Shown in pieces: positions 2 to 16,491 of a DNA stretch of 64,000 bases. Below the pieces are notes generated by a model. That model saw only the letters and a list, made by a program, of their open reading frames with translations, had not been told where the DNA came from and searched no databases. Source of the stretch: Bdellovibrionales bacterium (lineage in GTDB: Bacteria > Bdellovibrionota > Bdellovibrionia > Bdellovibrionales > JAMPXM01); contig JAYUEN010000398.1 in NCBI GenBank assembly GCA_043739185.1, positions 1 through 64,000 on the forward strand, given 5' to 3'. The translations under genes were made by a program, and so were the position numbers. Every line of letters begins with the position of its first letter. Within the stretch, counting starts at the first letter, position 1.

Positions 2-1576
2 ACTTCGGTGATTTTAAAAATTGCCATAACAGAACAGGCGCCGAGATTTGATTATATGTCCGGCATAGTCAATGGGACCGTAGGGGTTTCAATTGGTATT
101 GTAGCGCCCACGAATTTTATGATGGGTGGTAGTATTACAAATTGCACAAGTGACAGAGCATTGCCGGGCGGATTGAGTCTTTCTCCTAATTGCGTAATAT
201 CGGGAACGCCCACTACGGAACAAATGATGAGGCCCTATATGATCACGGGTAGCAATTCAGGTGGCAATGGCATGGCAATGATATCAATCGTGATATCGCG
301 AGCCAATCTGCCGCTCAAGATTTCGAGTTTGTCGGTGTCGAATGGGGCCATGTGCGCGGTCTTAAATGGTCAGGTCCGTTGTACTTACTTTTTTGCAGGT
401 GGTCTGCAAGTCTATGATAAGCTTGATGGTCTTTCAAATGTTCAGCAAGTTTCGGTTTCTCCGAAAGACAATTCAAATGGTGCTCCATTTAGTTCGCTGG
501 TTTTTGCTTTAGCGGGCGGAGCCGTTTATCAATTGAGTCCGGCTCCTTATTGTGACAATAGTGACTTTAATTTAACGGATGCGCCTCAAATCAATTCGCC
601 TTCAAATTTTTCAGGATACCTGACTTCATCTTGGTGCAAGCTTTCTGGATGGACTTCAGGTGTCAGCAAGATCACATCGGGACAAGGTTATATCTGTGCC
701 ATTCATGGCGGCGCTGCGGAATGTGCGGGCGCCAATTCTCGCGGTCAACTTGGCATTGGAGGTCCTTACGGCGTGCCAGGCCCGCGAATGAATTCACCGA
801 TGCCAGTTTTAGGTCTTAGCTACGGTGTACAAGATATTTCGGCTAGCAAATTTACGACTTGTGCAGTTGCCAATGGTCAAGAGATGTGTTGGGGAGACAA
901 TTACTATAGCATTTTTGGATTTGACCCTGACTTTGCAAGCTGTGATGCCGCAAGAAATTGTTTTTCAAATGTTCCGGTAGCGGTTCAGGGAATGGGTGCG
1001 GGAATTTCATTTGCCGCTCTCGGAGCGAATTCGAATTGTTCAAGCGCCTATGGCAATGTCACATGTACAGGCCAAAATTGGAATGGAGAATTGGGTGACC
1101 CAGCTTTGGCAAAGGGTTTCGGCTGCAATCCCACTCAAAACTATCAGTGGACAGTCGGTCATACTTGTAAAGGAACGGCAAATGTTGTGGGACTTCAGCC
1201 CGGCAATGTCATAGGGTTCTCAGGTACTTCTTATACAAACAGCATCTCTAGCCCGGACTCATTTGCTATCGATACACGTTGTGCAATTATGGGAACAAAC
1301 CCTCTCGCCACAGCAGGAGTTTTGCAGTGCTGGGGATACAATGGGATGAATGGTGGTAGCTTCGGAAAATTAGGATTGCAATCCGTCTTAAGCAATGACG
1401 ATATGTACGGTATCGGGGGCTCAGCGATGCCAAGTACTCCAATGGGCTTTACTCAGATTTCTTCTGCCGTTCAAATTGGCGATTCAATGTTGGCAGTAGA
1501 GTCCAATTCTCAGGGAGACAAAATTTGGGTTTGGGGTGGAGGCGCTTCGCCAACAGCACTCAACATTAGCCAATAA
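2..1576 (+). CDS. 5'-partial surface protein: putative Ig (He_PIG-like) domain followed by RCC1/BLIP-II-like beta-propeller repeats
   Basis: Frame is open to the window edge. LPGGLSLSPNCVISGTPT..YMITGSNSGG resembles a putative Ig domain; repeated C-x-G-x-N-x-x-G-(Q/E)-LG units (CAGANSRGQLG, CWGDNYYS, CTGQNWNGELG, CWGYNG) resemble RCC1 blades. Confidence 0.75.
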   Translation, partial: TSVILKIAITEQAPRFDYMSGIVNGTVGVSIGIVAPTNFMMGGSITNCTSDRALPGGLSLSPNCVISGTPTTEQMMRPYMITGSNSGGNGMAMISIVISRANLPLKISSLSVSNGAMCAVLNGQVRCTYFFAGGLQVYDKLDGLSNVQQVSVSPKDNSNGAPFSSLVFALAGGAVYQLSPAPYCDNSDFNLTDAPQINSPSNFSGYLTSSWCKLSGWTSGVSKITSGQGYICAIHGGAAECAGANSRGQLGIGGPYGVPGPRMNSPMPVLGLSYGVQDISASKFTTCAVANGQEMCWGDNYYSIFGFDPDFASCDAARNCFSNVPVAVQGMGAGISFAALGANSNCSSAYGNVTCTGQNWNGELGDPALAKGFGCNPTQNYQWTVGHTCKGTANVVGLQPGNVIGFSGTSYTNSISSPDSFAIDTRCAIMGTNPLATAGVLQCWGYNGMNGGSFGKLGLQSVLSNDDMYGIGGSAMPSTPMGFTQISSAVQIGDSMLAVESNSQGDKIWVWGGGASPTALNISQ

Positions 1577-1652
1577 GTTCTTTTACATTTGTCTTAAACC
1601 CAAAATTAAGTCCTAGTTTTTGATTGCTCTTAAAAGCTTGGCAGCATAAAAT

Positions 1653-2951
1653 TTGAAAATGATTTTTCGGCTTGAGATAATTGCTTTTCTATTCAGTGTT
1701 TTTTTAGGTGTCACGAGCAGCTCAGTTCTTGCTTCTGAATTGCCAGATCCAAAATTTGAAATTTACCGTGTGGTCGGAACTCAAAAAAAAGTCATCACCT
1801 CTATTTCAGGCCAGGCCAAATGGAGTTGGGAAAAAGTCGGGGACGGCGTTCAAGCACTTAAAGTAAAAGCCAGTTTCAATTTGCCAGAAGTTTTGAAGTC
1901 TGCAACAGTTACCCCGACAAATTCGCAAACCAAAGTAAGTATAAAAGATCAAAAGTTAAATATTCTTACCAGTGAACTTGAAAGTACTCTCAATTTTAAA
2001 ACTCAACAAAACCAATCTATGCAGCTCAGTTTTAAATTTACTGCCTCTGGACTTATTTTTTTTGATCAGGGCTGCCAAGAAATGAGTTTACAGAGCAAAG
2101 TAGAGCCGAAAAGCTTAGCCTTCTATATAGGTCTAAAGTGCAACATAAAGCCAAGTGGCGTTCAGCTCTCATTGAGTTTACCTAGTGAGGCCGAAGTTGA
2201 AAATTCAAGCCTTCATGATTTGCAAGGTAAGGGTGAAAGCTGGAAGCTTTACGAATTTGGCAATCTAGATGCGGCCAAAGGAGAAGTAGCAAACTTTAAA
2301 ATTCGTTATTTGAAGCAAGTCTACAACCTTTCAATAGTCTCAGTAAAACAAGACGAAATAAAAAAGAAGGGTAAAGAAGCGAAGTTTGCCGTTGGTTTGG
2401 GTTATGATTCGCTCAAGTACGATAGCTCAATAGGAAAATTTACGGACTCAAAGCCCATATTTTTTTTAAAGGGCTTACCCTATAGTTTGTTTTGGCGGAT
2501 TGGAATGGGAATTGATCTCGAAATTGCTTTGGCATTAAGTAAAAGCGATAATAATATTTCATTTTTGCAGTTTTTGCCATACGGGTATTTGAGAATTATT
2601 GATTCTCCCGGCTTTCTTTTTGAGGGGCGCGGATATTTTTCGATTACCACTCAAGCCCATGCAGCGTCAGGAGGCGGTTACCAACTCAATCAAGTGGGCG
2701 CGGGCGCAAAAATGGGAGTCCGAGTTTTTGAACCTTGGTGGTTAAGTATTGAGTCCCGCCGAGATGGCTTGGGGTCAAATGTGGTAAATGCTCACTTGTT
2801 CGCTGACGTCTCAGTTATGCGGCGATCAAAAGACAAATCGAATCTGGTGTGGGGTGCAGGTTATCAGTTTCAAGACATAAAAATTAATGAGACGGTCACA
2901 TTACAAGATGAATTTAGTCAGTCGTTATTTTATCTAATGGCGGAGTTTTGA
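1653..2951 (+). CDS. Secreted protein with predicted C-terminal outer-membrane beta-barrel (paralog 1)
   Basis: Signal peptide (..SSVLA/SE), amphipathic strands in the last ~190 aa, terminal YLMAEF. Clear similarity to the next gene. Confidence 0.6.
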   Translation: MKMIFRLEIIAFLFSVFLGVTSSSVLASELPDPKFEIYRVVGTQKKVITSISGQAKWSWEKVGDGVQALKVKASFNLPEVLKSATVTPTNSQTKVSIKDQKLNILTSELESTLNFKTQQNQSMQLSFKFTASGLIFFDQGCQEMSLQSKVEPKSLAFYIGLKCNIKPSGVQLSLSLPSEAEVENSSLHDLQGKGESWKLYEFGNLDAAKGEVANFKIRYLKQVYNLSIVSVKQDEIKKKGKEAKFAVGLGYDSLKYDSSIGKFTDSKPIFFLKGLPYSLFWRIGMGIDLEIALALSKSDNNISFLQFLPYGYLRIIDSPGFLFEGRGYFSITTQAHAASGGGYQLNQVGAGAKMGVRVFEPWWLSIESRRDGLGSNVVNAHLFADVSVMRRSKDKSNLVWGAGYQFQDIKINETVTLQDEFSQSLFYLMAEF

Positions 2952-4225
2952 TGAAAGCTTGTATCCTGCTTGCGCTCATAATAATTTTTGCTCAAATCGG
3001 TTTGAGCAAGAGCTTGTTTGCCGAAGAAATGAATGCAAATTTTGAGATCAGTCAGCTAAAGGGCAATCAATGGGACAATCTCAATCTCAATCCGAAAATC
3101 ACCTATATTTGGGCAGCCAATGCCGAGGGTGCGCGCACTCTCAAATGGAAAGTCTTGGTCGATACCTCTTGGGATTTTAATGTTAACCCAGTTGCGGTTT
3201 CAACAAGCAAAGCACAGGTGAGAACAAAGGGTAATCGACTGCAATTGACGACCGAAGCTTTATCGAGCGAGTTTAAATTGAAAAGTGGCTTGCAAGTGCG
3301 CTTTCTGTTTAAAGCATTGAAGCCAGTTTTGATTGAGGAGAATTGTAAAAAAGCCGATTTGGCATTTCAAGCAAAATCAAATTCAGCGCCATTTTATCTG
3401 GGGGTGAGTTGTGTCGTCGTTAAGGATCAGGTGACCCTGCACTTGAGCTTTCCCGCTGAAGCAAATTTGATACAATCTTCGCTCTTTGAAACTCAAGGAA
3501 AAGGAGAAAATTTTCGCGTATATGATTTGAAAAAAATCACCGCCGCGCGTGGAACCATCGGAAGTTTTTTATTTTCCTATGGCGGACAAAATTATGAATA
3601 TTCTTTGATGTCCCTCAAGAAAGCTGGTGCCGAAGATGGTCGCGCGACTGAATCGCGATTCACGCTTTCTCTTGGCTATGGCAATATGACACTCAAGAGT
3701 GTGACCAGTGACTTCAATTCGCCGAGACCCTTTGCGGTAATTGCCTTAAGACCAAGAAGAATTTTAGGTAATTTGGCCGCCGGAGTTAATTTTGAAAATT
3801 CAATTGGAAGTACAGATAGTGCGAATCCCGCCTCGATGTCTTATTTTCAAGTGGCAGGATACGCGACTTATATTTTGGCTGTCACCGACTGGCTCGAAAT
3901 TCAACCCCGACTTTATTATGTGATCTCGAATCAAAGTTCAGGGTCCGGCGTCGGATATCAAACTGGTCAAGTCGGGTTTGGACTCTGGAATCAGCTGCGA
4001 ATTTCACAGCGCTTTTATTTTCAATTCGAAGGCATGACTGAAGCCATAAGTTCGCCTGTGATTACCGCTCACTATTACACTGAAGTCGGAATTTTTTATC
4101 GCGATCTTGGCCTTAGTTCAGGCTGGGGAGCTGCGCTGCAATTGCAAAAATATAGTGTCGCCGACTCGCTTCAAAATGCCCGGGATTTTGGGCAGATTTT
4201 TTACATTTTAAAACGTTCATTTTAG
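2951..4225 (+). CDS. Secreted protein with predicted C-terminal outer-membrane beta-barrel (paralog 2)
   Basis: Signal peptide, terminal YILKRSF. Shares FY(I/L)G..C, QGKGE and AA(K/R)G blocks with the upstream gene. Its ATG overlaps the upstream TGA. Confidence 0.6.
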   Translation: MKACILLALIIIFAQIGLSKSLFAEEMNANFEISQLKGNQWDNLNLNPKITYIWAANAEGARTLKWKVLVDTSWDFNVNPVAVSTSKAQVRTKGNRLQLTTEALSSEFKLKSGLQVRFLFKALKPVLIEENCKKADLAFQAKSNSAPFYLGVSCVVVKDQVTLHLSFPAEANLIQSSLFETQGKGENFRVYDLKKITAARGTIGSFLFSYGGQNYEYSLMSLKKAGAEDGRATESRFTLSLGYGNMTLKSVTSDFNSPRPFAVIALRPRRILGNLAAGVNFENSIGSTDSANPASMSYFQVAGYATYILAVTDWLEIQPRLYYVISNQSSGSGVGYQTGQVGFGLWNQLRISQRFYFQFEGMTEAISSPVITAHYYTEVGIFYRDLGLSSGWGAALQLQKYSVADSLQNARDFGQIFYILKRSF

Positions 4226-4370
4226 AAAAACCTTTTGTTTTTCTTTCTCATTTTGAGCCATAGATTTTTTGGGAAAATTTCAGTCTTTTTTAGTATTTGA
4301 CTAAAAGTTAGTCTCCCATTTTTTTTCTTAGTACCGATAAGAGACATAGAGCTTTATTCGTGGAGTTTTT

Positions 4371-7300
4371 TTGAATCCAAAATATAATAGATTTAAGCAC
4401 GTCATTCGCGGAGGAATTTTGAATCTCAGTTGGTTCGAATTTTTTTATTTCAATCGAAAAGCAATTGCTTTTGCACTTGTGGTCCTTCTTCCGACCGCAC
4501 TCTATTTTCAAAACTGTTCGCCTCAGGGTCGAAACTTTCTCAGCATTAAAGGCGAAGTGATAGCTCCGGTTTCTCCGTTTGCGGATAAAAAAGTAGTGCT
4601 CAATCCTGAAAGTTTTAGGAATGCGCCCACAACGGCTTCGCAAGATCCCAATGTTGATTCTTCACAAATGATTTCGGATGCGGTCCCGACACTCAAGGCA
4701 AAAGTTCGTCTTTTGGCAAAAATAAATAATGCTTGCGCCGCTTCTTGGTGTGATGGCAAAGCATATCTCGATTCTCTTTCCTGCGAAGGATTTTTACAGG
4801 GCCCACAGGAAAAATTGAAAAATAGTTACCAAATTTACGAAGTAAAAAATCCCGGCAGATTAAATGAATCTCAGTTGCAGGCATGGGCGACGAAGAGTCC
4901 TGTTGACCAAGCTTGTTTAAAGGGAGTTTCTGAATTGAGGGTTTATTATCCTCAGGCTTTCAACGATACCTTTTATGCCACTTATCAAAAACCTCGCTTA
5001 GATCTTATTAATTTTGATGCGGGTCAATCTTATTTTCCAGAAAATGCATTGTCGCAAGTAAAAGTGGGAGTGATAGATTCAGGGATTGCCGGTGACAGCG
5101 TAGAGCTGCCAAATGTGGCGGCGCGAACCAATGTCAGCGATGTTGGCAATGATCCGCCTCTGTTTGCTGGCGGCGATCAAACCAAGCCAAATTATTTTCA
5201 CGGAACTTTTGTTGCCGGTATCATTGGTGCGAAGAGAAATAATAATAGCGGATTCGTCGGAGTTGCGCCAAATGTTGCGCTGTATGCATATGGTGTTGGC
5301 AATGGTTTGGGCTCTATGAGTAATCGTGAAATCGGCAATGCCATTCAAGACGTGGTCATTGATCAAATGGATGTGGTCAATATGTCCTTTGGAAATTCAG
5401 CAGGCTATTATAGTGATGATCCCGTTGTTTCAGATGCTTTAATTGATGGTTACAACGCCAATATTTTATTTATTGTTGCCGCCGGAAACAGTGGGCAGAA
5501 TTTGGATATAAACCCATCTTATCCAGCACAATATTCTTTTACTTTGCAAAATGTGATTACAGTTGCGGCTTCTGATACAATCGGAAATATAGCAAGCTTT
5601 TCAAATCGAAGTTCGACTTATGTTAACATCATGGCTCCAGGAGTTGGGATCGCATCGACTTTTCCCAGTAATTTGCCTCTACCTTCCGGCACTGGTTCAG
5701 ACAATGTTGTGGTTTCGCAAGGAACGTCTTTTGCTGCTCCGATGGTGGCGGGTGCCGCAGCTTTGGCTATTGGAGCTTTGCGCTTTAAGAATTTGTCTCC
5801 AGATGTTGGCGCATTGAAAAAATTGTTAACTGTAGATGGTGCTAAAAGTCGAAGTGATTTAACAAATTATGTTCACAACGGAGCCATCTTAGATTTAGTG
5901 TCATTGGGTCAGGCCTTGCAAAGTATGACATCGGCTGCGCCGATCACACTTTCAGAAGTCAGACAAAGTGATACCAATGGTAATCCGACAGTTCAATTGA
6001 CGATTTCTTACGACTCAAGTCAGTTGTCAAATGTAGCGCCAAATTCTAAAATCGGAATTTTTGATTTAACTTCAGGATGCAATTTCTCAGCTCCTTGTTT
6101 GATTCAAAGTTTTGACTATCCTTCTGCGAATGCAAAATGTGTTCTTTCAAGTTGTTATTTTACTGTGACTCTCACACGTGACCAAGTTGTTTCAATGATG
6201 TCGGCTAAAAACGATCCTTCACAAAAACTCTCTTTAGCGGTTGCGATCTATCATGTTGTAACTGGCAAATCGCTTTATGGATTAGATGCTTCAACGCATA
6301 TCAATCTTCGTGATTTGCCTGCTGTGAATGTCGGGCTCCCACTTATGGGAGGGGTTACAAACATAAGAATGGATATGCAAAATTTTTATGTGCAGGGTTG
6401 GGCCTGTTTGCCGGGCTCCGAAAGAGCCATTAAAGTCGGAATAGTAGATGCGAACAATCAAGCCATACCAGCTGATTTTGCCTATGCTTATCCATTTATG
6501 ATTCCTCATGGGACTCCATTTGATCTGGTCGGCGACGTAGGTGATTGGATGACGAACTATGATCCAAAAACCCAGACATTTAATAGTGGTATGTTACATT
6601 CCGTGCCTTATATGGCCGGAGGAATTGTGGTTTCTCAGTTAGGTCAAAGTACCTATTTATCAGGTTTAGAATCCAATCCCCAATTGGTCGGGCCTTGTCA
6701 ATCGCTTACGGCTTCTCATGGTTTTGAATTGGTCATTCCTTTCGGAAAAATAGCAGGCTCTTCTCTCTCGGGAAAAAACTTTAAAGTGCAAGCCGGTGAT
6801 TCATTAGAATTATCTTTGGCGGATCAGTCTGGATTGAGCTTGTTTGAATTTCCCGATGTAGTTCAAGGAGCCACCGAGAGCAAATTCAATGTAGCGAGAG
6901 ATTCATCGAACTATCAATTGAGCGGAGGGCTTTGTTCAAGTTCACCTTCCCCAGTTGAAGTTGAAGTGACTTATACGACTTACAATTATGTCGCGGCCTT
7001 GACCGGGCTGATTCCGAATGTGAATACAATACCCCAAGGTCTGGTTAGCGATTCGAGTCTGTTGCCGACAAATGCACTTCCTTTACCCGTTGAAACAATT
7101 AATCATACCTCTAATTCTGATATGACCCTTCGAATAACTACGGATACATTGCTTGCTACAGATACGGACCCATTTACAATTGCTTATAAATCCTATTTAC
7201 AAAATCCGCCAAACGCTGCAGTTGGAGGACCGAGTTTCGGCTCAGGTATATCAGATTCTTTGTTGCAACAATTCACAACCAATGTAAATGCTCACAAGAG

Positions 7301-7919
7301 TTTTTTAAGAGTTGGTACGGGTGAGTCGTTGGTATTTTTTCGCGACCAAGCCAATATGGCTGCCGGGTCGGCATGGGATACTGCTTTGGCCAGTTATCAA
7401 ACCGCAAGAACAGGTTTAACATCTACAGTCGGCCTAGGTGACCCTCAGTACTGGGATTACTATGATGTCGGCACGCCTTTTTCAAATGATTTGATTGGCT
7501 ATGATTTGAAGTACCATTTTCCTGATGTTTCAAACGCGCTTCGCATGAATTATCAGATCACAACAGCGCTTCGTGAAGTCAAAAAATATGAAACCCCACT
7601 GGCCAAGAATACAGGCGTGCTCGCTCATTCAAATCTCACTGTCAATTGGTCGGGTATATGTAGTAGCGGGTATCGTCATGAGTTTCCGTCATCTTATATG
7701 ATCAATAATTATGTTAATTTTGCGCCCTTTTATACCAACGGCAATTCTGGATTTTGGGTCAGTGGCAATTCACCTCAGTCGATTGCAAAGACCACAGTCC
7801 AGGCGGCAATGCAGAATCTACCGCTGACTTTGAGATTCTTTCAGGATGGTAAACTCATTCTTCATATTGAGTCGGATTCAAGTTCAAATTTCAATCAAGT
7901 GGTTTATAATTTCAGGTAA
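4371..7919 (+). CDS. Large S8 subtilisin-family serine protease, probable lipoprotein, with ~660-aa uncharacterised C-terminal region
   Basis: Catalytic motifs VGVIDSG, HGTFVAGII, AAGN and GTSFAAPMVAG. Hydrophobic segment followed by YFQNC. GGAG precedes the TTG start. Confidence 0.9.
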   Translation: MNPKYNRFKHVIRGGILNLSWFEFFYFNRKAIAFALVVLLPTALYFQNCSPQGRNFLSIKGEVIAPVSPFADKKVVLNPESFRNAPTTASQDPNVDSSQMISDAVPTLKAKVRLLAKINNACAASWCDGKAYLDSLSCEGFLQGPQEKLKNSYQIYEVKNPGRLNESQLQAWATKSPVDQACLKGVSELRVYYPQAFNDTFYATYQKPRLDLINFDAGQSYFPENALSQVKVGVIDSGIAGDSVELPNVAARTNVSDVGNDPPLFAGGDQTKPNYFHGTFVAGIIGAKRNNNSGFVGVAPNVALYAYGVGNGLGSMSNREIGNAIQDVVIDQMDVVNMSFGNSAGYYSDDPVVSDALIDGYNANILFIVAAGNSGQNLDINPSYPAQYSFTLQNVITVAASDTIGNIASFSNRSSTYVNIMAPGVGIASTFPSNLPLPSGTGSDNVVVSQGTSFAAPMVAGAAALAIGALRFKNLSPDVGALKKLLTVDGAKSRSDLTNYVHNGAILDLVSLGQALQSMTSAAPITLSEVRQSDTNGNPTVQLTISYDSSQLSNVAPNSKIGIFDLTSGCNFSAPCLIQSFDYPSANAKCVLSSCYFTVTLTRDQVVSMMSAKNDPSQKLSLAVAIYHVVTGKSLYGLDASTHINLRDLPAVNVGLPLMGGVTNIRMDMQNFYVQGWACLPGSERAIKVGIVDANNQAIPADFAYAYPFMIPHGTPFDLVGDVGDWMTNYDPKTQTFNSGMLHSVPYMAGGIVVSQLGQSTYLSGLESNPQLVGPCQSLTASHGFELVIPFGKIAGSSLSGKNFKVQAGDSLELSLADQSGLSLFEFPDVVQGATESKFNVARDSSNYQLSGGLCSSSPSPVEVEVTYTTYNYVAALTGLIPNVNTIPQGLVSDSSLLPTNALPLPVETINHTSNSDMTLRITTDTLLATDTDPFTIAYKSYLQNPPNAAVGGPSFGSGISDSLLQQFTTNVNAHKSFLRVGTGESLVFFRDQANMAAGSAWDTALASYQTARTGLTSTVGLGDPQYWDYYDVGTPFSNDLIGYDLKYHFPDVSNALRMNYQITTALREVKKYETPLAKNTGVLAHSNLTVNWSGICSSGYRHEFPSSYMINNYVNFAPFYTNGNSGFWVSGNSPQSIAKTTVQAAMQNLPLTLRFFQDGKLILHIESDSSSNFNQVVYNFR

Positions 7920-7935
7920 GAGGAGACTTCAGCAC

Positions 7936-10395
7936 GTGATTTTTCTACATTCGGTCTTGAAAAAAGATGTTTCCGAATTGCCCAAAATACTATTTGGTCT
8001 CATTGCACTTTTTTTGGTTATGAGTTGCACTGGTAAAGTAAATACCGAAACCAGTATTGCAAGTGCAGTTGAATCTATGGCTGCACAAAATTCAGTATCC
8101 CTCATTTCAAACTCGACACAATCTCAAAATAAATGCGAAGTTGGAAATACGGTTGTGATTCAAGTAGCACTTTCATCAATCGCGCAATATTATTGTCGGG
8201 ACCTTTCAACACTAATGGATTCAGTAAAATTAGGACCCATTTGTAGCGGTGGAATTTCGATTCAGGCTTTAAAGGTAGACGGAAGTGCAAAGGATTGCCA
8301 TCAGCTTACGATTTGCGGCAAAACTTTTGATTCAAAAATTGATATTACCAAGCGAATAGACGGCACCACGGTTCAACAATTGACCTTCAGCAATTTGCCC
8401 TGGGGCTGCGAAGGTCGAATTGAAGCATCTACAAGTAGTTCATTTGATACGCCTGATACACAAAAAGTCAGCTTTCAAGTATTGCCGCCGTCTTGTCCGT
8501 TTTGTCAGGCGAGTAATGGGGTCACTTGCAATGCTTGCGCATCGGCAACTGATTCAACTTTTATTGCCGGACAAATGATTCCCAATACTTGTACTGGTGG
8601 CTGCAAAAGCTGCGCATATCCGCCGCCAAATAGTCCTTCTGCAAGTATTCCAGGAGTTTCGGTTGTTCAAGTAAACCATGCGGGTATTGGTGCTTTTTAT
8701 ACTACTGCAAATGCGGTATGCGGTCAGACTTGTAATCAAGTTCAGCAAATCAGGGTTTGCAATAATGGAGCTTGGGTCGCTGGTTCGGATGTGAGTTTTT
8801 CGACTCAATGTCAAGAGCCTTCGAGTTCAAGTTGTTCTGCAGGTCCGCATTCAGTTTCTCAAGTGATGAGTCAAATTTCAACGAGCATTGGTAGTGCATT
8901 TAATATGAGTGGTGTGACGAGAAGGAGTTTCGCCGCTGCGTTTATCCCAACCTGCATTGATTGTCAGGCGGGTAAATGTGCAACTTGTAAGGCGGCAAGC
9001 GGAGCTGATGGTTTTATTTTGTATTCTCAGGCTTCAGTTGCCAACGGGGTAAATTGCTCGACGGTTAGTCAATGTAAAACCTGTGTGAACGGACTTTTTC
9101 AGGGGGACCCCACCTTCAATTACAATTCCTGCTCTTCACTTTCGGCCTCATGCAATCAAAAATTACTCTCAGCAGCTGTGCCATCAGGATCATCACAAAT
9201 TTTTTATAACGGCGGCGCTTGCGATCCGATTAGTCTTCAATGCCTAGACGGAAATTGGAATGCCTCTGGTGCGGCAGTCTCTCAAGCTTTAGCTGATAGC
9301 TATACTCTTACTTGTATTAAGGCAGTCGATTGCAAAACCTCTGCAGGAATTCCAATCCTAAATGGTGCTTCACTATATGTATTTGATACGGCCCTGGTTG
9401 ATTCAACTGACAATTGTTATTCGGCATCACACTATCGATATTTGAGTTGTGCAAGTGGTTCAGTTGCCCCCTCTGATCCCGGAGTCACATTTAGTTTCAA
9501 AACTTGCACGACTAAGAAATGTGTTGATCCCAGGGATAGTTCAAAAACCATTAACGCAGGTACTACGGTTTCTTATTGGTCAGTTGCTCCACCAAATTGT
9601 TCGGCACTGCCAAGCCCTCAAGCCTATTGTGATAATAATAAAATTACAATTACTTGTCCGGCTTCTGGTGGTACGGCAACGGTTTCTCCGGCTTCGGCAA
9701 CGAATCTTTCAAGCTTTACAAATAATTCTTGTGTGGTCCCGACTTCGTGTACGGGCTGTGTTTTTAATAAAACAGATGCCACCAATATTAGTGTCGCCTT
9801 TGACGGCACTATTACTTTATTTAAAGTGGCCGCTTCGGATCTTTGCCAAGGCGTGGGGAAATTATTTAAATGTCAGCAGGGCGTAAATGGAGCCGCTCCA
9901 TTTTTGCTTGATACGACAGGCGCTAGTGAAAAAGATTCGGTATATCCGTATTTGAATTGCAGCCCAACCGGTGGCGCAGACCAAGGGAATTTGGGTGGAA
10001 CCGGAGGCGGAACCGGGAATGATAACGGCCCGGGCGCAGCCCTTAAAAAGCGGTTTGGCGGAGGAGACGGAAGTGGTGGAGGGGGTCTTGGTTGCGTCGA
10101 CGCAACTATTTGTCCCGCCCATTATTCAAAGGCTTCACAACCTTTCACCGTTTTATTTAATCCGTGTTTATTACCGTGGCCAGGTCGAATCGGCGAGATC
10201 GAGTTTTATGGTTCGATCATTGCCTTTAGTAGTTCAGGCTTAAATCTTGCCTCTGGTACTTCCGATACTGTTTGCGTAACCAAACCTGATACTTGTTCGA
10301 AGCACCGTCAATCTCGTACTTGTCACTATCCCAATTGGACCGGCACTGATGATTTCAAATATCCAAATTGCGTTGAGAAAACGAGTTGCCCATGA
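7936..10395 (+). CDS. Cys-rich repeat lipoprotein (about 7 repeats of ~55-75 aa)
   Basis: GTG start with AGGAG at 7921-7925; lipobox LVMS-C; repeated C..G....(Y/F)......C......C..G....(F/Y)..C units. Confidence 0.7.
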   Translation: MIFLHSVLKKDVSELPKILFGLIALFLVMSCTGKVNTETSIASAVESMAAQNSVSLISNSTQSQNKCEVGNTVVIQVALSSIAQYYCRDLSTLMDSVKLGPICSGGISIQALKVDGSAKDCHQLTICGKTFDSKIDITKRIDGTTVQQLTFSNLPWGCEGRIEASTSSSFDTPDTQKVSFQVLPPSCPFCQASNGVTCNACASATDSTFIAGQMIPNTCTGGCKSCAYPPPNSPSASIPGVSVVQVNHAGIGAFYTTANAVCGQTCNQVQQIRVCNNGAWVAGSDVSFSTQCQEPSSSSCSAGPHSVSQVMSQISTSIGSAFNMSGVTRRSFAAAFIPTCIDCQAGKCATCKAASGADGFILYSQASVANGVNCSTVSQCKTCVNGLFQGDPTFNYNSCSSLSASCNQKLLSAAVPSGSSQIFYNGGACDPISLQCLDGNWNASGAAVSQALADSYTLTCIKAVDCKTSAGIPILNGASLYVFDTALVDSTDNCYSASHYRYLSCASGSVAPSDPGVTFSFKTCTTKKCVDPRDSSKTINAGTTVSYWSVAPPNCSALPSPQAYCDNNKITITCPASGGTATVSPASATNLSSFTNNSCVVPTSCTGCVFNKTDATNISVAFDGTITLFKVAASDLCQGVGKLFKCQQGVNGAAPFLLDTTGASEKDSVYPYLNCSPTGGADQGNLGGTGGGTGNDNGPGAALKKRFGGGDGSGGGGLGCVDATICPAHYSKASQPFTVLFNPCLLPWPGRIGEIEFYGSIIAFSSSGLNLASGTSDTVCVTKPDTCSKHRQSRTCHYPNWTGTDDFKYPNCVEKTSCP

Positions 10396-13133
10396 GCTTT
10401 AAATTGAAAACACTTCGAGCTCTCAGTTTCATTTCAATTTGTTTTCTCAGTTTTGTTATTTTATTTTCAGGCTGTTCATCTAAGGTCAATGCTCCACAAA
10501 CCGAGCAGGCCAATCAAGTTGAAATGAGTTATACCCAAGCATGCGCAAAGGGGAGTTGTCCTTGCAGTTCCCCCTTGGGCCCAATAGTTGATGGCGGTAC
10601 CGCGCTTGCCTACGATACTTCACAGGTGACTTGCGGCAATACCTGTCAAACTCATGCCACAACATTGAAATGTAAAAACGGAGTTTTTGATAAAGACATC
10701 AAAGCCCTTTCATTTTCCTGCCAAGTCAATGCCTGTAAGGCTTGTACTGTAGGCAACAATCAAGTGCCCCACGGCTTCACAGTACAAATGTATAATAGCA
10801 GCTCAGTCAATTGTGGCCGGAGTTGTGATGACAATAAGCGTGCCCTCGTTTGCAAAGATGGCAGCCTCTTAGGGACTCTGGCCGGCCCATCTGCAGACGG
10901 CAAAGATTCACAATTCTCGTTTTCAAGCTGCCTGCCTTCGGCATGCAGTTGTGCAATACCAGACGGCGGAACCATGACTCTCGGTGGAACCATGAAGTTT
11001 TATAAATCAGCAACCGGAACTTGTACAACGCCTTGCCAAGACCCCAGCAATACAGCAACAAAAACTTGTTTGCAAAGTGGTACGCCTGCGGCCCCAGTTT
11101 ATGCCTTCGGTGGTGACCCAGCATTTGCGAAATCAAGCTGTTTAGAAAAGCCCCAAAGCCTTTGTGGCTGCGTATTGCCTGACACCAATAAAACCATTCT
11201 GCCTCATGGACAAGCCCAAGACCTTTTTTCAAGTACAGCTCCCAAAAATTGCAGTAGCTGCGACGCCTTTAAAATGACGGTCTATTGCGATAGCGGTACT
11301 TTATACAATAAACCTTCAACGGATACGACGCGCTTAGTGGTCGTTCCCAGTGATTTAAATTCACATAGTAATTTGAGCTGTGATCCAAGTAAAACTCCCG
11401 ATTGTACAATTAATAATTTGTGTATTGCGGATAAGACCAGTCAAACTCTTTATGGCAAGGCGACACTTTCTTGTAGCGATATGCCTGCCGATTCGCAGTC
11501 TTTATTTGTCTGTAATTCGAAAAATCTTTTAAGAGATGGCGTGGCCTACAATGCCGCAAGCGATCCTTTTAAAACCACTTGGCAAACCTCTACTCCAAGT
11601 AACTCATGTGTGGGTTGCGCGATGCCTTGGGGCGGTGCTGTGAGTGCGAACTCAAAAGTTACCATGTTCAAGGGATCTGGTTCATCTTCTAATTCTTGCG
11701 GAACCGGTTGCAAAGAATATCAATTCACCTGCCAAGCGTCCGGAAGTTTTACCTCAGGCGACTCAAGCATAGATGCGGATTTTAAAGCCAATCCTAAAAC
11801 CTATACTCAGACTTGCCAAAATAGTTGTACGCAAGAAGGCGGCGGCGCGCCGCCAAGATTTTGTTTGCTCCCTTGGCAAAATAGCTATGTGTCGGCTGAT
11901 TCAGTTATTCCAATGTGGAATAAAAAAGTCGTTGATTACGGAGATAGTTGTCAAAATCACTATAAGCTTGGTCGTTGTCAGTTGAACACAGGAACTTTCG
12001 ATGCCGGCATTCAATATATTTATAAAAGTTGCACCGAACTTCCGTTCAGTGGCCTTCGTATCGATACGATTTCACCAAAATATTTGGCCGCAAGTGGTGG
12101 CTCTATAAATATCGGTGGAGTGGGATTTGCGGCAGGTATGCAACTTAAAATTGGTAGTCAATTGTGTTCGAACCTAATTGTTGCATCTTCAACTTCTGCT
12201 AGCTGCACAGCTCCTGCTGCCGCAGTTGGGGCTTATGATGTTCAAGCAATTGTTGCAAATAAAAAAGCTTCAGTCCCTAACGGATTAAATTATTACTCTG
12301 GAACTTGCAGCGCCGGCCCCGGGTCGATGCAATTTAAATTCACCGGTTCAAATCAGAGTTTCACAATTCCAGCGGGATGTACCTCAATTAGCATTCAAGC
12401 TTGGGGAGCAGGCGGCGGCGGAAGACAGTTTTATACACCTGATACCGGAGTTTTAATTGCGCAAACCGGGGGAGCTGGTGGATTTACCTCAGGAAGCATT
12501 AGTGTGACACCAGGAAGTACTTTGACCTTAGTAGTAGGCGGTGGCGGAAGTGGTGGCTATTATCAGGGTTCATCTGGTGGCGGTTATTCCGGCGTATTTT
12601 CTGGTAACACAATTACAGGCGCTTCGGCCTTGATAATTGCTGGCGGTGGTGGTGGTGCTGGCGATCCAACCGGCTGTAATAAAGGTGGAACGGCAGGAGA
12701 AGGTGGCGGGACAACCGGCGGAACTCATGGATCATGTTCGGGCTTGGGCGGAACGCAAACTGTAGGTGGTGCTGGCGGAGCTTCGGCCAGTCCCGGACTT
12801 TCATTGAAGGGTGGAAATATCGGAACGAACAACAATGGCTATGCTGGCCAGGGAACCGGATCTGGTTATCAATCTGGCGGTGGTGGTGGCGGCGGATATT
12901 TTGGGGGCGGAGCAGGTTCTGAAGTCTTAGGTCTGGCCGGAGCCGGCGGTGGCGGCAGTGGCTATTTTATTTCAACGGCCGTCAATGGCAAATCTTTGAT
13001 GGGGTCGGGGCGTCTGCCTCCTCAGGCCAATAGTCCATCGTATATTTTTGGAATTGGAATGGGCGGCAGCGATATGACCAATGGCTACGGCAGTTCGGCG
13101 GGCGGCAGTGGACTCATTCAAATTAGTTACTAG
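10392..13133 (+). CDS. Cys-rich repeat lipoprotein with IPT/TIG domain and C-terminal glycine-rich domain
   Basis: ATGA overlap with the upstream stop; lipobox LFSG-C; 7 Cys repeats; IDTISPKYLAASGGSINIGGVGF (IPT/TIG); FTGSNQSFTIPAGCTSISIQAWGAGGGG..GGGYFGGG (glycine-rich domain). Confidence 0.75.
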   Translation: MSFKLKTLRALSFISICFLSFVILFSGCSSKVNAPQTEQANQVEMSYTQACAKGSCPCSSPLGPIVDGGTALAYDTSQVTCGNTCQTHATTLKCKNGVFDKDIKALSFSCQVNACKACTVGNNQVPHGFTVQMYNSSSVNCGRSCDDNKRALVCKDGSLLGTLAGPSADGKDSQFSFSSCLPSACSCAIPDGGTMTLGGTMKFYKSATGTCTTPCQDPSNTATKTCLQSGTPAAPVYAFGGDPAFAKSSCLEKPQSLCGCVLPDTNKTILPHGQAQDLFSSTAPKNCSSCDAFKMTVYCDSGTLYNKPSTDTTRLVVVPSDLNSHSNLSCDPSKTPDCTINNLCIADKTSQTLYGKATLSCSDMPADSQSLFVCNSKNLLRDGVAYNAASDPFKTTWQTSTPSNSCVGCAMPWGGAVSANSKVTMFKGSGSSSNSCGTGCKEYQFTCQASGSFTSGDSSIDADFKANPKTYTQTCQNSCTQEGGGAPPRFCLLPWQNSYVSADSVIPMWNKKVVDYGDSCQNHYKLGRCQLNTGTFDAGIQYIYKSCTELPFSGLRIDTISPKYLAASGGSINIGGVGFAAGMQLKIGSQLCSNLIVASSTSASCTAPAAAVGAYDVQAIVANKKASVPNGLNYYSGTCSAGPGSMQFKFTGSNQSFTIPAGCTSISIQAWGAGGGGRQFYTPDTGVLIAQTGGAGGFTSGSISVTPGSTLTLVVGGGGSGGYYQGSSGGGYSGVFSGNTITGASALIIAGGGGGAGDPTGCNKGGTAGEGGGTTGGTHGSCSGLGGTQTVGGAGGASASPGLSLKGGNIGTNNNGYAGQGTGSGYQSGGGGGGGYFGGGAGSEVLGLAGAGGGGSGYFISTAVNGKSLMGSGRLPPQANSPSYIFGIGMGGSDMTNGYGSSAGGSGLIQISY

Positions 13134-13150
13134 TTAGTTGCTCGCTGACT

Positions 13151-13177
13151 TTAGTAAAAGCTCAATGATTCCGATAA
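13151..13177 (+). promoter_or_regulatory. Candidate sigma28 (FliA) promoter of the motA-like gene
   Basis: TTAG-N15-TCCGATAA versus consensus TAAA-N15-GCCGATAA. Confidence 0.5.
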
Positions 13178-13183
13178 AAAATC

Positions 13184-14173
13184 ATGAATATTTCTACTCT
13201 TGTTGGAATTTGCGTTGCCATTGCTGTGATTTGGAATGGCGTTGTCAAACACGCAACTAATACTTCCATTTTTTTAGACTCCCACGCAATCACTCTGGTG
13301 GTGGGTGGTACAATTGCTGCTGCTTTGATTGCTTTTCCGCTGAGAGATATTTTTCATTTATTTAAATTTGTTGTGCTGGGTGTGCTTTATCCTAAATCAC
13401 GAAATAAAGTAAAAATTGCCAAAGACATCTTATCTTTCACTCTCAAGACGAGAGCAAATGGCGATAAACCTGTTGATAATGTTTGCCATCCATTTCTGAC
13501 TGAAGGATTTTTGTTGATTCAAAAAAAGACTTTGAGTCACGAAGAATTTCGCACTGTTTTGGGAGAGAGAAATCTTCACTTTAAAGAAAGTTACGGCGCT
13601 GATGCCAAAATGCTAAATGCATTGGCTAAATTTCCGCCTGCCTTTGGTCTGTTGGGTGCGACTACCGGAATGATCGCGATGATGTCCAATCTCGGCGCCG
13701 GCGGCAAAGATTCAATTGGTCCTGCTATGGCGATTGCGTTGGTCGCAACCTTTTGGGGAATCGCAGTTGCAAATTTGATTTTACTTCCTTTGGCCGATCA
13801 CGCTTCAAAATTAGCCAAGGACGATTCGAAAGTGCGGGAAATGATGATGGCGGGAATGGTGCTCCTTCACGAAGGGGCAACGCCTAGTTTTATTTATGAA
13901 GTGATGCGAAGTTATTTGAGCATTCCGGATCGTAATCATTCTGAATTACGTCAAATAAAATCTGAGTTAGAAACAGTGTTTGCACGAGATGAAAAGGCAA
14001 AGCAAGATCGTCTAGCTCAAGAAAACCCATATCAAAATATCGCCAATGTCGAGCAGCTCATTCAAAATGTAGAGGCGACCCAAGGCGCAGACGCGCCGGC
14101 CGAGTCTGATTCCCAAGAAAAATCTGAGGAGCTCGCTCTAGATAATGTGGTTCATCTGAGATCGGCAAAATGA
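13184..14173 (+). CDS. motA: MotA/TolQ/ExbB-family ion channel subunit, MotA-like
   Basis: IFLDSHAITLVVGGT and FPPAFGLLGATTGMIAMMSNL..IGPAMAIALVATFWGIAVANLILLPLA match MotA transmembrane motifs. Confidence 0.85.
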   Translation: MNISTLVGICVAIAVIWNGVVKHATNTSIFLDSHAITLVVGGTIAAALIAFPLRDIFHLFKFVVLGVLYPKSRNKVKIAKDILSFTLKTRANGDKPVDNVCHPFLTEGFLLIQKKTLSHEEFRTVLGERNLHFKESYGADAKMLNALAKFPPAFGLLGATTGMIAMMSNLGAGGKDSIGPAMAIALVATFWGIAVANLILLPLADHASKLAKDDSKVREMMMAGMVLLHEGATPSFIYEVMRSYLSIPDRNHSELRQIKSELETVFARDEKAKQDRLAQENPYQNIANVEQLIQNVEATQGADAPAESDSQEKSEELALDNVVHLRSAK

Positions 14174-15375
14174 AAGCACTTGATCCCAAAGAGAGCGATC
14201 CCAAACCTCCGAGATTCAATCCTATTTTGAAGCATGATGATGATGATCATGTCGATCATATTGATGAAAGATGGCTGGTATCTTATGCCGACATGATGAC
14301 CTTGTTGTTTGGGCTTTTCGTCATGCTGTACTCAATGTCGACCAATTTCGAAGAAGTGCAAAGTGCGATGACCAAACAATTTGCGCAGACAGACCCCGTT
14401 CCTGAACCCGCAAAGATCATTGACCCCAAGGAATTCGAAGAATTAAAAAGTAAGTTAGAATTGCTCACTCAGCAAATGGATCATTCGATCAAAGAAAATG
14501 ATACATTAAAGACTGAGCTCATTGATCTTAGTAAGGTCAAAAGAGAAAATGAGAAATTAAAACAAGATCTTGCCCAAATTGAAAAGATGAAAAGTGAACT
14601 TGCAAACTCAAAAGATAATTCGGCTACGGCGAGCGCACAAATTTTGGAGTTAAAGCTTGCGAAAGAAAAACTTGAAGAGGCATTAAAAGAAAAGCAAAAG
14701 CCTGATCCAAAAGAAAAAGACCTTGAGAAAGTGATTGCCGAAAATCAAAATATGAAAAATAAATTGCTAGCTGTCACGGCTATGCAAAAAGAAGTTGCAA
14801 AATTGACCGCCCTTAATAAAACTCTGACTCAACAACTCAAAGATGCGAGTCGTGAGCCCGCCAATGTGCCTGACAAAATACCTGAACCAAGCGAAGATCT
14901 TCAAAAACAGGTCGATGAACTCAAGACGGCAAAAGAAGTATTAGAAAAACAATTGAAAGACAATCAAGAGGCGATGGCTTCAATGGCGCCACCAACCCCA
15001 TTTGCAGCAGTGGTGATTACATGGCCAACCGCCGATCATGATATTGATTTGATTTTAACCGACCCCGAGGGAAAGACCTTTAACTTTAAAGAACGTAGCT
15101 TTTCAGGGCATCCGGGTCAGTTTGTCTTGGATTCTCGTCGCGGCCCTGGGGCTGAAATGTGGCAGACCGATCGCACTTTAGCTGGGACCTATACCATTAA
15201 GTATGTCTTTTACAATACCTACGGAAATGCTGAGCCAGCAACTGTTTTGGGAACAATATATTCAGCTCGAGGAATGTATGAGCTTCCGAAAGTGAAGCTC
15301 AATTTTGATTCAAAACGCGAACAAATTTTTCGCTTTAGCATCTCTAAAAAGGGCGAAATCACTTTACTGAAGTAG
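14170..15375 (+). CDS. MotB-like subunit: MotB TM helix, long coiled coil, C-terminal YfaP/DUF2135-like domain; no OmpA domain
   Basis: ERWLVSYADMMTLLFGLFVMLYSMS retains the conserved Asp; ~180-aa E/K/L/Q-rich heptad region; ITWPTADHDIDLILTDPEG..LDSRRGPGAE..GTYTIKYVFY. Confidence 0.75.
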   Translation: MKALDPKESDPKPPRFNPILKHDDDDHVDHIDERWLVSYADMMTLLFGLFVMLYSMSTNFEEVQSAMTKQFAQTDPVPEPAKIIDPKEFEELKSKLELLTQQMDHSIKENDTLKTELIDLSKVKRENEKLKQDLAQIEKMKSELANSKDNSATASAQILELKLAKEKLEEALKEKQKPDPKEKDLEKVIAENQNMKNKLLAVTAMQKEVAKLTALNKTLTQQLKDASREPANVPDKIPEPSEDLQKQVDELKTAKEVLEKQLKDNQEAMASMAPPTPFAAVVITWPTADHDIDLILTDPEGKTFNFKERSFSGHPGQFVLDSRRGPGAEMWQTDRTLAGTYTIKYVFYNTYGNAEPATVLGTIYSARGMYELPKVKLNFDSKREQIFRFSISKKGEITLLK

Positions 15376-16300
15376 AGCGATTCATGGTTTGCAGACCCAT
15401 CATTTCTTGCATGGTTCTGCGCATTGAATCGGTTGAGCCGTCTAAGAAAAACATATTTCCTTTGCCATTTTCAGCAAAATGTTTGAGCGCATCTAGCCAC
15501 ATTGAAAAAAGCACAGTTGAGATATCTAAACCTGAATCCTTCATTTGTTCTGCTGCAATCGTCATTCCTCTGGCGACCTCTTCGCGAAACAGTGCCACCC
15601 CTTGACCTCGGAGTTGTGCTGCTTGTCTCTCTGCTTCTGCCGATATTTTTATCGCATTCCCTTCGGCTTCTGCTTGTTTGGTTTTTGTAATCAAAAGTGC
15701 CTGTCCTTGATTTTCGGCCGCTGCTTTCAGATTGTTTGAGGCAACAACTTGGGCCATCGATTTCATAATATCGTCGTCAAAAGTGATATCGTTCATTTGT
15801 AAATCAATGAGGTGATATCCCCAACTTTCTAAGCTTGCATCGAGCTGTTCTTTGACCGACTCGACGATGTCTTTTCTTAGTAGCAAAATTTCGCTTTGCT
15901 TTTTGGTGGCCACAAAGCTTCGTACACAACCCTCAACTGTTCGAGTTAGGGCCTGCATGAAATTCTTAAAATCAATGAATTTAAAGGCGACATTTTTTAT
16001 GCTTTCTTCATTTTGATTTAATACCGCATAAAGTAGCATGGCTTTAAAATTAACATTGGCTTGATCGGCCGTGATTGCTTGGAACTGCAGTTCGATAGAC
16101 TGATTCTGAATCGAAACTCTTCGATAAACCATTTCGACAATTGGCAATTTAAAATTCAATCCCGGAAGCAAAATACGTTTGTATTTACCGAACATTGTGA
16201 CCACGCCCACGGTACCTTGGGCAACGCTGATAAAGCTATTTGCTAGAATGATCAGAGCGATAATGATGAGTGCGATTGCAAAAACTGATAGGCCTTCCAT
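15359..16300 (-). CDS. SPFH/band 7 domain protein
   Basis: N-terminal TM; VVTMFGKYKRILLPGLNFKLP; AEAEG repeats. Start chosen from a GGAG Shine-Dalgarno. Confidence 0.9.
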   Translation of the reverse strand: MEGLSVFAIALIIIALIILANSFISVAQGTVGVVTMFGKYKRILLPGLNFKLPIVEMVYRRVSIQNQSIELQFQAITADQANVNFKAMLLYAVLNQNEESIKNVAFKFIDFKNFMQALTRTVEGCVRSFVATKKQSEILLLRKDIVESVKEQLDASLESWGYHLIDLQMNDITFDDDIMKSMAQVVASNNLKAAAENQGQALLITKTKQAEAEGNAIKISAEAERQAAQLRGQGVALFREEVARGMTIAAEQMKDSGLDISTVLFSMWLDALKHFAENGKGNMFFLDGSTDSMRRTMQEMMGLQTMNRSTSVK

Positions 16301-16491
16301 TTGTGACTCCATTTAAAATGAGATTGAGCTCACCATCTTGCTGCCGGTCCGCTCATGGGGTCAATAGATTTGCAAGAGATCTCACAGATGAAATAAAAGC
16401 TTGGACTCTAAAAAAATTTCAGAGAGCTATCTACCAATGTGGATCAAATCGAACAGAGGCTTCATTGAGTCCCTTTTTGCTAGGATCTTCA

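Follow-up and report, generated by a model that had tools for sequence, protein, structure and literature searches.

A conserved motor, barrel and lipoprotein module of Bdellovibrionota that may form an energised surface machine

Contig JAYUEN010000398.1 (C398) of a Bdellovibrionales bacterium (assembly GCA_043739185.1) opens with a run of eight genes, seven of which are a conserved module: a MotA/MotB-like motor pair, two outer-membrane barrels, an S8 protease and two cysteine-repeat (Cys-repeat) lipoproteins. The run was found in a stretch of 64,000 nucleotides (the window), which begins at the first base of the contig. In our best reading, to which we assign a probability of roughly 0.45, the module would be a motor-driven barrel platform that exposes, moves or releases a set of surface lipoproteins. 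The open reading frames (ORFs) of the cluster occupy window positions 2-15375, all on the + strand, and are listed here with a candidate promoter (aa, amino acids; TM, transmembrane; AF2, AlphaFold2):

2..1576, + strand: ORF1, C-terminal portion of a He_PIG-repeat protein of ~1,470 aa whose end is RCC1-like (Pfam, contig overlap)
1653..2951, + strand: outer-membrane protein 1, core; has a signal peptide, a beta domain of ~200 aa bearing FExxGKGExW, and a C-terminal barrel whose last residue is Phe (fold inferred from the model of its paralog)
2948..4225, + strand: outer-membrane protein 2, core; predicted to consist of a beta domain at the N terminus and a 10-stranded OpcA/OmpT-like barrel, without the omptin catalytic residues (AF2 model)
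4371..7919, + strand: S8 subtilase of lipoprotein set A; lipoprotein-like signal FQNC, D/H/S motifs intact (PF00082 E 1e-43, linked homologs)
7846..10395, + strand: Cys-repeat lipoprotein 1; N-terminal domain of ~200 aa, ~7 copies of the ~70-aa repeat and a conserved Gly-rich loop preceding the last of them; the real start is probably near 7957
10386..13133, + strand: Cys-repeat lipoprotein 2; 7 repeats, a GGGAP motif, then an IPT/TIG domain and a Gly-rich tip
13150..13177, + strand: candidate FliA (sigma-28)-type promoter TTTAG-N16-CCGATAA, 6 nt upstream of the motA ATG
13184..14173, + strand: MotA-like motor subunit A, core; TM3/TM4 conserved, family without the rotor-contact R/E pair
14170..15375, + strand: MotB-like subunit B, core; TM segment with conserved Asp, plug, ~213-aa largely coiled-coil-like linker, and a YfaP/TerD-like beta-sandwich head replacing OmpA

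All eight ORFs were verified at these coordinates, in the common orientation and with the short gaps or overlaps that the first-pass annotation of this DNA had described. Its S8, MotA-like and MotB-like calls were borne out by Pfam matches to Peptidase_S8, MotA_ExbB and MotB_plug, which together with He_PIG are the only families that Pfam and NCBIfam recognise among the eight; neither collection holds a family that matched the barrels or the Cys-repeat proteins, and the MotA and MotB of the window fall below every NCBIfam cut-off. The two barrels are indeed paralogous (26% identity, E 8e-48), the two Cys-repeat proteins have a common repeat of ~70 aa, and the Pfam and NCBIfam scans found no flagellar, TonB or secretion gene among the eight, as had been claimed.

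Homologs were sought in 61 relatives, in 251 genomes of the order and in 301 genomes of the phylum, with carriers assigned to Bdellovibrionota by record labels. Among the 61 relatives, the MotB variant was present at full length in seven other genomes, surrounded by barrel homologs and, in two of them, by S8 and Cys homologs as well. Across the order, the barrel profile matched 32/251 genomes, and the profile of the head of the B subunit matched 41/251, of which 35 were matched over the full length (E below 1e-20) and 6, weak partial matches with E above 1e-10, were dropped. All 32 barrel genomes are among the 35 with a full-length head, i.e., 32/35 head genomes have the barrel, and in 27 of the 32 the two genes lie on one contig within ~12 kb. 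When the 8 seed genomes were left out, the head was present in 24/24 barrel genomes and same-contig linkage held in 20/24. Four of the five split genomes (G002, G115, G162 and G151) are cases of short contigs or contig ends, and the fifth, G147, looks truly separate. A search with the N-terminal part of Cys protein 1 gave matches in 15 genomes, and after removal of 4 weak matches all 11 strong ones were in genomes with both barrel and head. In other orders of the phylum, a barrel below E 1e-40 occurs in 7 genomes, with the head in 7/7 and adjacent in 6. A pattern scan for the head only returned 34 loci, 27 of which have a barrel within the fetched stretch; the remaining seven comprise two contigs of <4 kb, one with a 10-kb flank that is perhaps too short, and four from other phyla. 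One non-homologous row was removed from the first barrel alignment, and the motor ORF of G162 was missed by ORF calling and hence is absent from the locus table and from the barrel-head correlation given below.

Gene order is far more variable than gene content. Barrel, motor B, S8 and Cys proteins occur together at 13 loci, counting the window, in 12 gene orders and with only 3 loci fully co-oriented; these counts do not support a single conserved operon. Three further complete loci with the same lipoprotein set exist beyond the 13. The closest match, G178 from another family, has twin barrels, the S8 protease (56%) and both Cys proteins (58% and 64%) with an inverted motAB. Co-orientation and twin barrels are thus local features, and the linkage of barrel, motor, S8 protease and Cys-repeat lipoproteins spans several orders of the phylum. 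The first-pass annotation had proposed an undescribed energised surface machine and a synteny search for barrel, Cys-repeat lipoproteins and MotB variant; since these co-occur and are linked across families and orders, instead of being scattered with motAB unlinked, the machine stands as an inference. The module was present in 0/18 searched genomes of one large genus with many closed genomes, and this absence from a well-sequenced genus may explain why it has been overlooked.

Judged by the genes that keep company at these loci, the machine is likely a core of motor A, motor B and barrel combined with a swappable lipoprotein set. Set A, as in the window, is the S8 protease with the two Cys-repeat lipoproteins. 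At other loci the same core is accompanied by an alternative set: a pair of Ig/NHL-type proteins plus two paralogous ~610-690-aa proteins (with Lcl_C matches below cut-off in the two where Pfam matched), a single Big_13 protein of ~1,445 aa, or a single protein of ~520-610 aa. Some genomes carry two or three systems, each with its own lipoprotein set, and on a quick barrel tree the set label changes 6 times versus 23.5 in shuffles. Long proteins of one family also occur next to the module, at seven loci from several lineages (L040:17070-19901, L036:2526-5108, L013:18443-19900, L015:14309-19900), and the L040 member has an S74 chaperone match; these are possibly further co-used adhesins.

The B subunit combines stator features with a different periplasmic part. 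Its only Pfam match is the plug (PF13677, E 5e-15), with no OmpA domain, and the TM Asp lies in WLVSYAD in the window and in a WLxSYxD motif in the family. A linker of 213 aa, of which ~126 residues pass a crude heptad score (range 87-343 aa, median 157, across 57 B subunits), leads to a head at window positions 14983-15372, modelled as a beta-sandwich with a predicted local distance difference test score (pLDDT) of 95. By structure comparison the head is closest to a TerD homolog (Z 9.0, root-mean-square deviation (rmsd) 3.8 over 122 aa), and it aligns (hhalign 96%) with a protein of this genome that we take to be YfaP-like. Pfam DUF2135 matches 2/40 head members, weakly, and PDB sequence searches with the head and barrel profiles gave nothing below E 0.09. 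The invariant residues of the head (W14, D22, D50, G54-P55-G56, E58, G68 and Y70) could form a cation or lysine site.

In MotA, the TM3/TM4 signature is conserved. According to PMC12505986, the R90/E98-equivalent residues of MotA contact FliG; R and E occur together at these rotor-contact columns in 0/56 system rows (duplicates included) versus 2/5 OmpA-type controls, and the window MotA has R, then D after a 4-residue gap. Two carriers, G163 (97% complete) and G209 (96%), keep the whole set in assemblies in which FliG, flagellin, FlhA and FlgI were not found; G115, in which FliG alone is missing, is an assembly gap. The motor is non-flagellar, because its MotA is without the rotor-contact pair and because two carriers are without the four flagellar families. 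It also comes in a second form: in 9/48 loci of the head tree, the same head is carried by a B subunit of ExbB type (DLFAS motif), an FHA gene precedes several of these loci, and sister barrels pair with MotA-type or ExbB-type motors sharing the head (Shimodaira-Hasegawa-like approximate likelihood ratio test, 99).

These properties bear on the simplest alternative, that a chance run of secreted-protein genes happens to stand beside an extra flagellar stator. The FliA-type box upstream of motA and the presence of FliG in 39/42 carriers would fit such a stator. Linkage in 12 gene orders contradicts a chance run, while the missing OmpA domain and R/E pair, the retention in two non-flagellated genomes, and the two ordinary flagellar motA genes that score above the NCBIfam cut-off elsewhere in this genome speak against a stator, and we consider this explanation extremely improbable.

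Other motor genes were seen outside the module. G163 (C95, C65, C66) and G209 (C46, C1, C29), the genomes without flagellar families, have another three to four MotB-plug genes (242-272 aa), and more non-flagellar MotAB systems may therefore exist in the order. At L027:10534-14004, motA stands in a compact unit with an OmpA-type motB and a gene of 558 aa that matches FliG_C weakly (E 0.002), at a distance from flagellar genes. In this genome, secreted proteins with signals of the QNC/QHC type come after an ExbB/ExbD-like gene trio (G000:C155:110130-116283), and one of these proteins has a weak MtsD match; here, too, motor and lipoprotein genes are clustered. B subunits with a YfaP/TerD-like head and without a barrel occur in Balneolales, Rhodohalobacter, Thiomargarita and a deltaproteobacterium, some at loci with an ExbB-like partner; these barrel-less loci adjoin genes that we presume to be FHA or kinase genes. 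Such B subunits of other phyla are a possible source of the motor head. A head search against plasmids gave no match.

The first-pass annotation had also drawn attention to CCGATAA boxes before the protease and motA. The box has no enrichment in the window (9 found versus 7.4 expected), and the two sites fared differently. In Bdellovibrio bacteriovorus the FliA consensus is TTAAG-N16-CCGATA (PMC3627812), and in this genome the same pattern peaks at spacer 16, with 72 sites versus 28-47 at other spacers. The motA box is one mismatch from this consensus, its -35 element matching at 4/5 positions, whereas the box at 4334 has CTCCC at -35, which is no match, so that a full FliA promoter there is not supported. 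A FliA-type -10 box lies upstream of motA in 12/28 lineage representatives versus 39/264 control ORFs, and upstream of S8 genes in 5/19 and of barrels in 3/60 (control 70/545); the -35 rule passes in only 2/45 motA loci. Together, the genome spacer peak, the motA box and the -10 boxes at homologs make a FliA-type promoter for the motor plausible, which if used would give a leaderless mRNA, and the data do not show one FliA regulon shared across the cluster. Sigma-70 and terminator scans were at chance level.

The enriched -10 box, together with the plug being kept while rotor contacts are lost, would also suit a contact sensor, in which load on the rods pulls the barrel and coiled coil and opens the MotB plug, so that ion flux or an FHA partner signals contact with prey or a surface. 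The FHA gene before several ExbB-type versions points the same way. Neighbour clusters, on the other hand, revealed no signalling gene conserved beside the MotA-type loci, and the conserved protease is left unexplained by such a sensor, which we regard as quite unlikely.

The barrel was modelled from 148 sequences with pLDDT 94.6 and a predicted template modelling score (pTM) of 0.68, as a ~200-aa all-beta domain, a flexible linker and ten strands. Its best structural matches are OpcA (Z 19.5, rmsd 2.7 over 186 aa) and OmpT (Z 19.4), at 7-11% identity to barrels of the OpcA/OmpT type, and a C-terminal Phe is present in 105/148 sequences. An omptin role was rejected, as the same 148 sequences hold no conserved Asp or His in the barrel (highest column frequency 28% for Asp and 46% for His). 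No conserved residues line the barrel in this alignment, and near-invariant residues are found only in the N-domain (C109, C131 and G160-K161-G162, with the motif FExxGKGExW). Given this concentration of conservation, the GKG motif would be the natural docking site for the head. An ESM Atlas search with the barrel returned only unnamed clusters or generic barrels. Longer distant relatives of 505-666 aa without a motor lie at L084:9546-12817, L081:9018-10640, L082:9046-10563 and L083:9401-11065, and G284 has two distant relatives in tandem, beside a 1,864-aa protein.

A constant core with swappable neighbouring lipoproteins, present more than once per genome and each time with a different set, is also what would be expected of a dedicated motor-powered secretion system, in which the barrel, alone or as an oligomer, exports the neighbouring lipoproteins as a Slam with an engine. 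Slam genes likewise adjoin their substrates, and complexes between RcsF and barrel proteins are known (PMC7857515). Against such export, the barrel is predicted to be 10-stranded versus 14 strands for Slam (PMC7857515), it has no conserved lining residues, cargo with 31-65 Cys would fold in the periplasm, and the Myxococcus barrels are described in PMC9946355 as shielding CglB, not exporting it. We consider secretion unlikely; a 10-stranded lumen suits disulfide-rich cargo poorly, and a platform is therefore favoured over a translocon. The same barrel model bears on energised uptake in the manner of SusCD, in which a surface protease and binding proteins would supply peptides that enter through the barrel. 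The loci are in keeping with this in combining an S8 protease that looks active with binding-like lipoproteins, a barrel and a motor, but the 10-stranded barrel lacks the plug-and-22-strand architecture, no TonB is found in the loci and most lipoprotein sets are without a hydrolase, which makes uptake highly unlikely.

The S8 protease looks active, with its catalytic motifs intact (VGVIDSG, HGTFVAG and GTSFAAP). Lipoboxes are present in both Cys proteins, as is the ~70-aa repeat in 4-10 copies, and their repeat counts differ by <=1 in 16/16 loci (5/5, 6/5, 7/6, 10/9, 10/10; rho 0.89). These matched counts suggest that the two Cys-repeat rods pair side by side. Each has a conserved Gly-rich loop preceding the last core repeat; a dibasic site in that loop of Cys protein 1 (KKR in the window) was rejected as the protease target, as it is missing in G094 and G179. 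The TIG and Gly-rich tip of Cys protein 2 is absent or different in most homologs, and in this resembles a swappable tip. An ESM Atlas search with the Cys repeats gave no usable match. The Cys-repeat profile also matches two secreted-looking proteins of this genome (G000:C100:19146-19691 and G000:C506:40644-41699); across this genome, 50/3,702 ORFs carry a [FY][QE]NC signal motif.

Lipoproteins face the periplasm by default, and on that ground the lipoproteins might be periplasmic, the machine acting Tol-like on its own envelope by tethering, remodelling or protease positioning. One lineage has the module beside an mreB-like gene (L089:3673-12407, L088, L090, L091, L093 and L104, where motor and barrel directly follow that gene and three conserved genes), and another beside an SLT lipoprotein, as might be expected of such a role. 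The variable tips, the Lcl_C, NHL, Ig and Gly-rich domains and the patchy multi-copy distribution fit surface functions instead, and Tol-like genes stand separately in this genome; we hold a periplasmic role to be slightly more doubtful than that of a sensor.

Returning to the motor-driven platform, the following mechanism can be proposed. The MotA/MotB-like pair would act as an ion-driven non-flagellar motor whose B subunit, having lost its cell-wall anchor, would span the periplasm on the coiled coil, with the YfaP/TerD-like head docking on the GKG motif of the barrel N-domain. The barrel would serve as an outer-membrane platform, on which motor work exposes, moves or releases likely surface-facing lipoproteins, in the window the S8 protease and two Cys-repeat rods, probably paired, that end in a variable tip. 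The motor would be a 5:2 assembly with ion flux, the head would contact the barrel with the barrel N-domain in the periplasm, and the module may have roles in adhesion and in the attack phase. There is a precedent in Myxococcus, where a motor-coupled barrel platform is described as shielding an adhesin lipoprotein that is released by proteolysis (PMC9946355, bioRxiv 10.1101/2020.07.22.216333).

Several observations weigh against this reading. Kin genomes are not independent, and the co-occurrence counts therefore overstate. Three head genomes have no barrel match (G085, G119 and G240), and in G324 and G147 motor and barrel stand in separate contexts. Distant partial barrel relatives had no motor in 4/4 fetched cases (L081-L084), and the same head sits on an ExbB-type motor without a barrel in other phyla (L113, L114, L116, L118 and L130). 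Resolution of the head tree is poor, and its groups reflect in part the motor type and not the neighbouring barrel, G094 grouping with G035/G112; the barrel-head distance correlation is weak (rho 0.43, with 0/999 permutations as high), and so is the one-to-one barrel-head co-phylogeny that was looked for. Motor and barrel come without a recognised lipoprotein set in the L088-L093, L104 lineage and in G267. Surface exposure of the lipoproteins would follow from their adhesin-like domains only. Finally, GltG-like genes are, like FliG, present in 39/42 carriers, and the module therefore does not replace known motility; in this genome a separate GltG-like locus is found on another contig.

The first gene of the run was set apart from the module. 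ORF1 had been called an Ig and RCC1 protein; its He_PIG match upholds the first part, and the RCC1 call is weak (E 0.057). The suggestion that the cluster continues past the left edge held for ORF1 itself and not for further cluster genes. The end of contig C2 overlaps the start of C398 by an exact 98 nt in the same reading frame, and ORF1 is therefore the C-terminal third of a ~1,470-aa protein, a join that rests on the 98-nt overlap plus frame continuity; sequencing-run contigs, which may correspond to C2, reach 2,458 bases beyond the left edge. The C2 part of the protein has 10 He_PIG matches and starts with a lipoprotein-like FENC signal. Further upstream, C2 carries housekeeping-like genes, presumably gap and pgk, so that only ORF1, not the cluster, continues leftward. 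ORF1 was rejected as a core member, having only partial RCC1-like relatives in 14/56 genomes, none at a system locus, and is a neighbour, at most variable cargo. At the other end, an SPFH/Band 7 gene (window 15359-16312, - strand) converges on the motB end with a 17-nt overlap and is not a conserved neighbour.

To our knowledge, few kinds of 5:2 ion-motor machine are known, namely the flagellar stator, Ton, Tol, Agl-Glt, type IX and Zorya. Zorya has a ZorA tail, an OmpA-bearing ZorB and ZorC/D/E effectors; compared with these features, the module has no OmpA domain and no effector-like cluster among its neighbours. Against the Ton system (TonB-dependent transporters, SusCD), the barrel model has 10 strands and is not 22-stranded and plugged, and no TonB family is among the genes. 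The flagellar stators MotAB/PomAB have in common with the module the MotA fold, the TM3/TM4 signature and the MotB Asp and plug (PMC12505986), while in the module the OmpA-like anchor is replaced, the R90/E98-equivalent pair is lost and the motor is kept without flagella. Agl-Glt of Myxococcus xanthus (AglRQS motor, GltG/GltJ, GltA/B/H barrels and CglB) likewise combines an ion motor, paired barrels with N-domains and a lipoprotein partner, and proteolytic release of that lipoprotein would be common to both (PMC9946355). Unlike Agl-Glt, the module loci are without a TolA/TonB-like transducer gene and the B subunit is itself long; by NCBIfam there is no GltG/GltJ or AglQ/S among the eight genes, no vWA adhesin was seen, and neither barrel matches NCBIfam, GltA/B profiles not having been directly compared. 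The GldLM/PorLM motor of type IX is also of the 5:2 type, with a single-pass subunit that has no peptidoglycan-binding domain and spans the periplasm toward the outer membrane (PMC9127263, PMC13104615). In the module, by contrast, the subunits are MotA/MotB- or ExbB-like with a coiled-coil arm, no ring or large translocon family was found in the loci, and Pfam and NCBIfam gave no GldK/L/M/N or SprA match among the eight genes. Slam/type XI similarly places a barrel gene beside variable lipoprotein genes (PMC7857515), whereas the module barrel has 10 strands and not 14, a beta N-domain and not TPR, and a linked motor. The OpcA/omptin barrels have the same 10-stranded fold, to which the module adds the 200-aa N-domain, and TerD and YfaP/DUF2135 domains have the fold of the head, which is here fused to a motor subunit.

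No published description of the module was found in open-access full text, most subscription papers lying outside that scope. Thus, the individual folds are known, and the system, set apart from Zorya and GltA/B by incomplete comparison, appears new. We give slightly better than even odds to the broader proposal that it represents a new class of ion-driven trans-envelope machine in predatory bacteria, in which a flagellar-type stator has been repurposed so that its B subunit is a periplasm-spanning shaft. By driving the 10-stranded barrel platform, this shaft would deploy, rotate or shed modular surface appendages (the protease and the paired Cys-repeat rods with their swappable tips) at prey or surface contact, and MotA and ExbB engines would be interchangeable on one and the same head. 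The module fits none of the tested 5:2 machines and suggests a three-protein route by which force could pass between inner and outer membrane with no transducer of the TonB/TolA type. It also shows a flagellar-type stator, plug included, at work outside flagella, and two engine classes exchanged on one output. For surface motility in Bdellovibrionota, a 2026 review regards the motors, the adhesins and the transmission of force as an open challenge (PMC13104615). Since the complete genome of Pseudobdellovibrio sp. HCB154 (L115) carries the core and a four-lipoprotein set, the question would be testable in a carrier with a complete genome.

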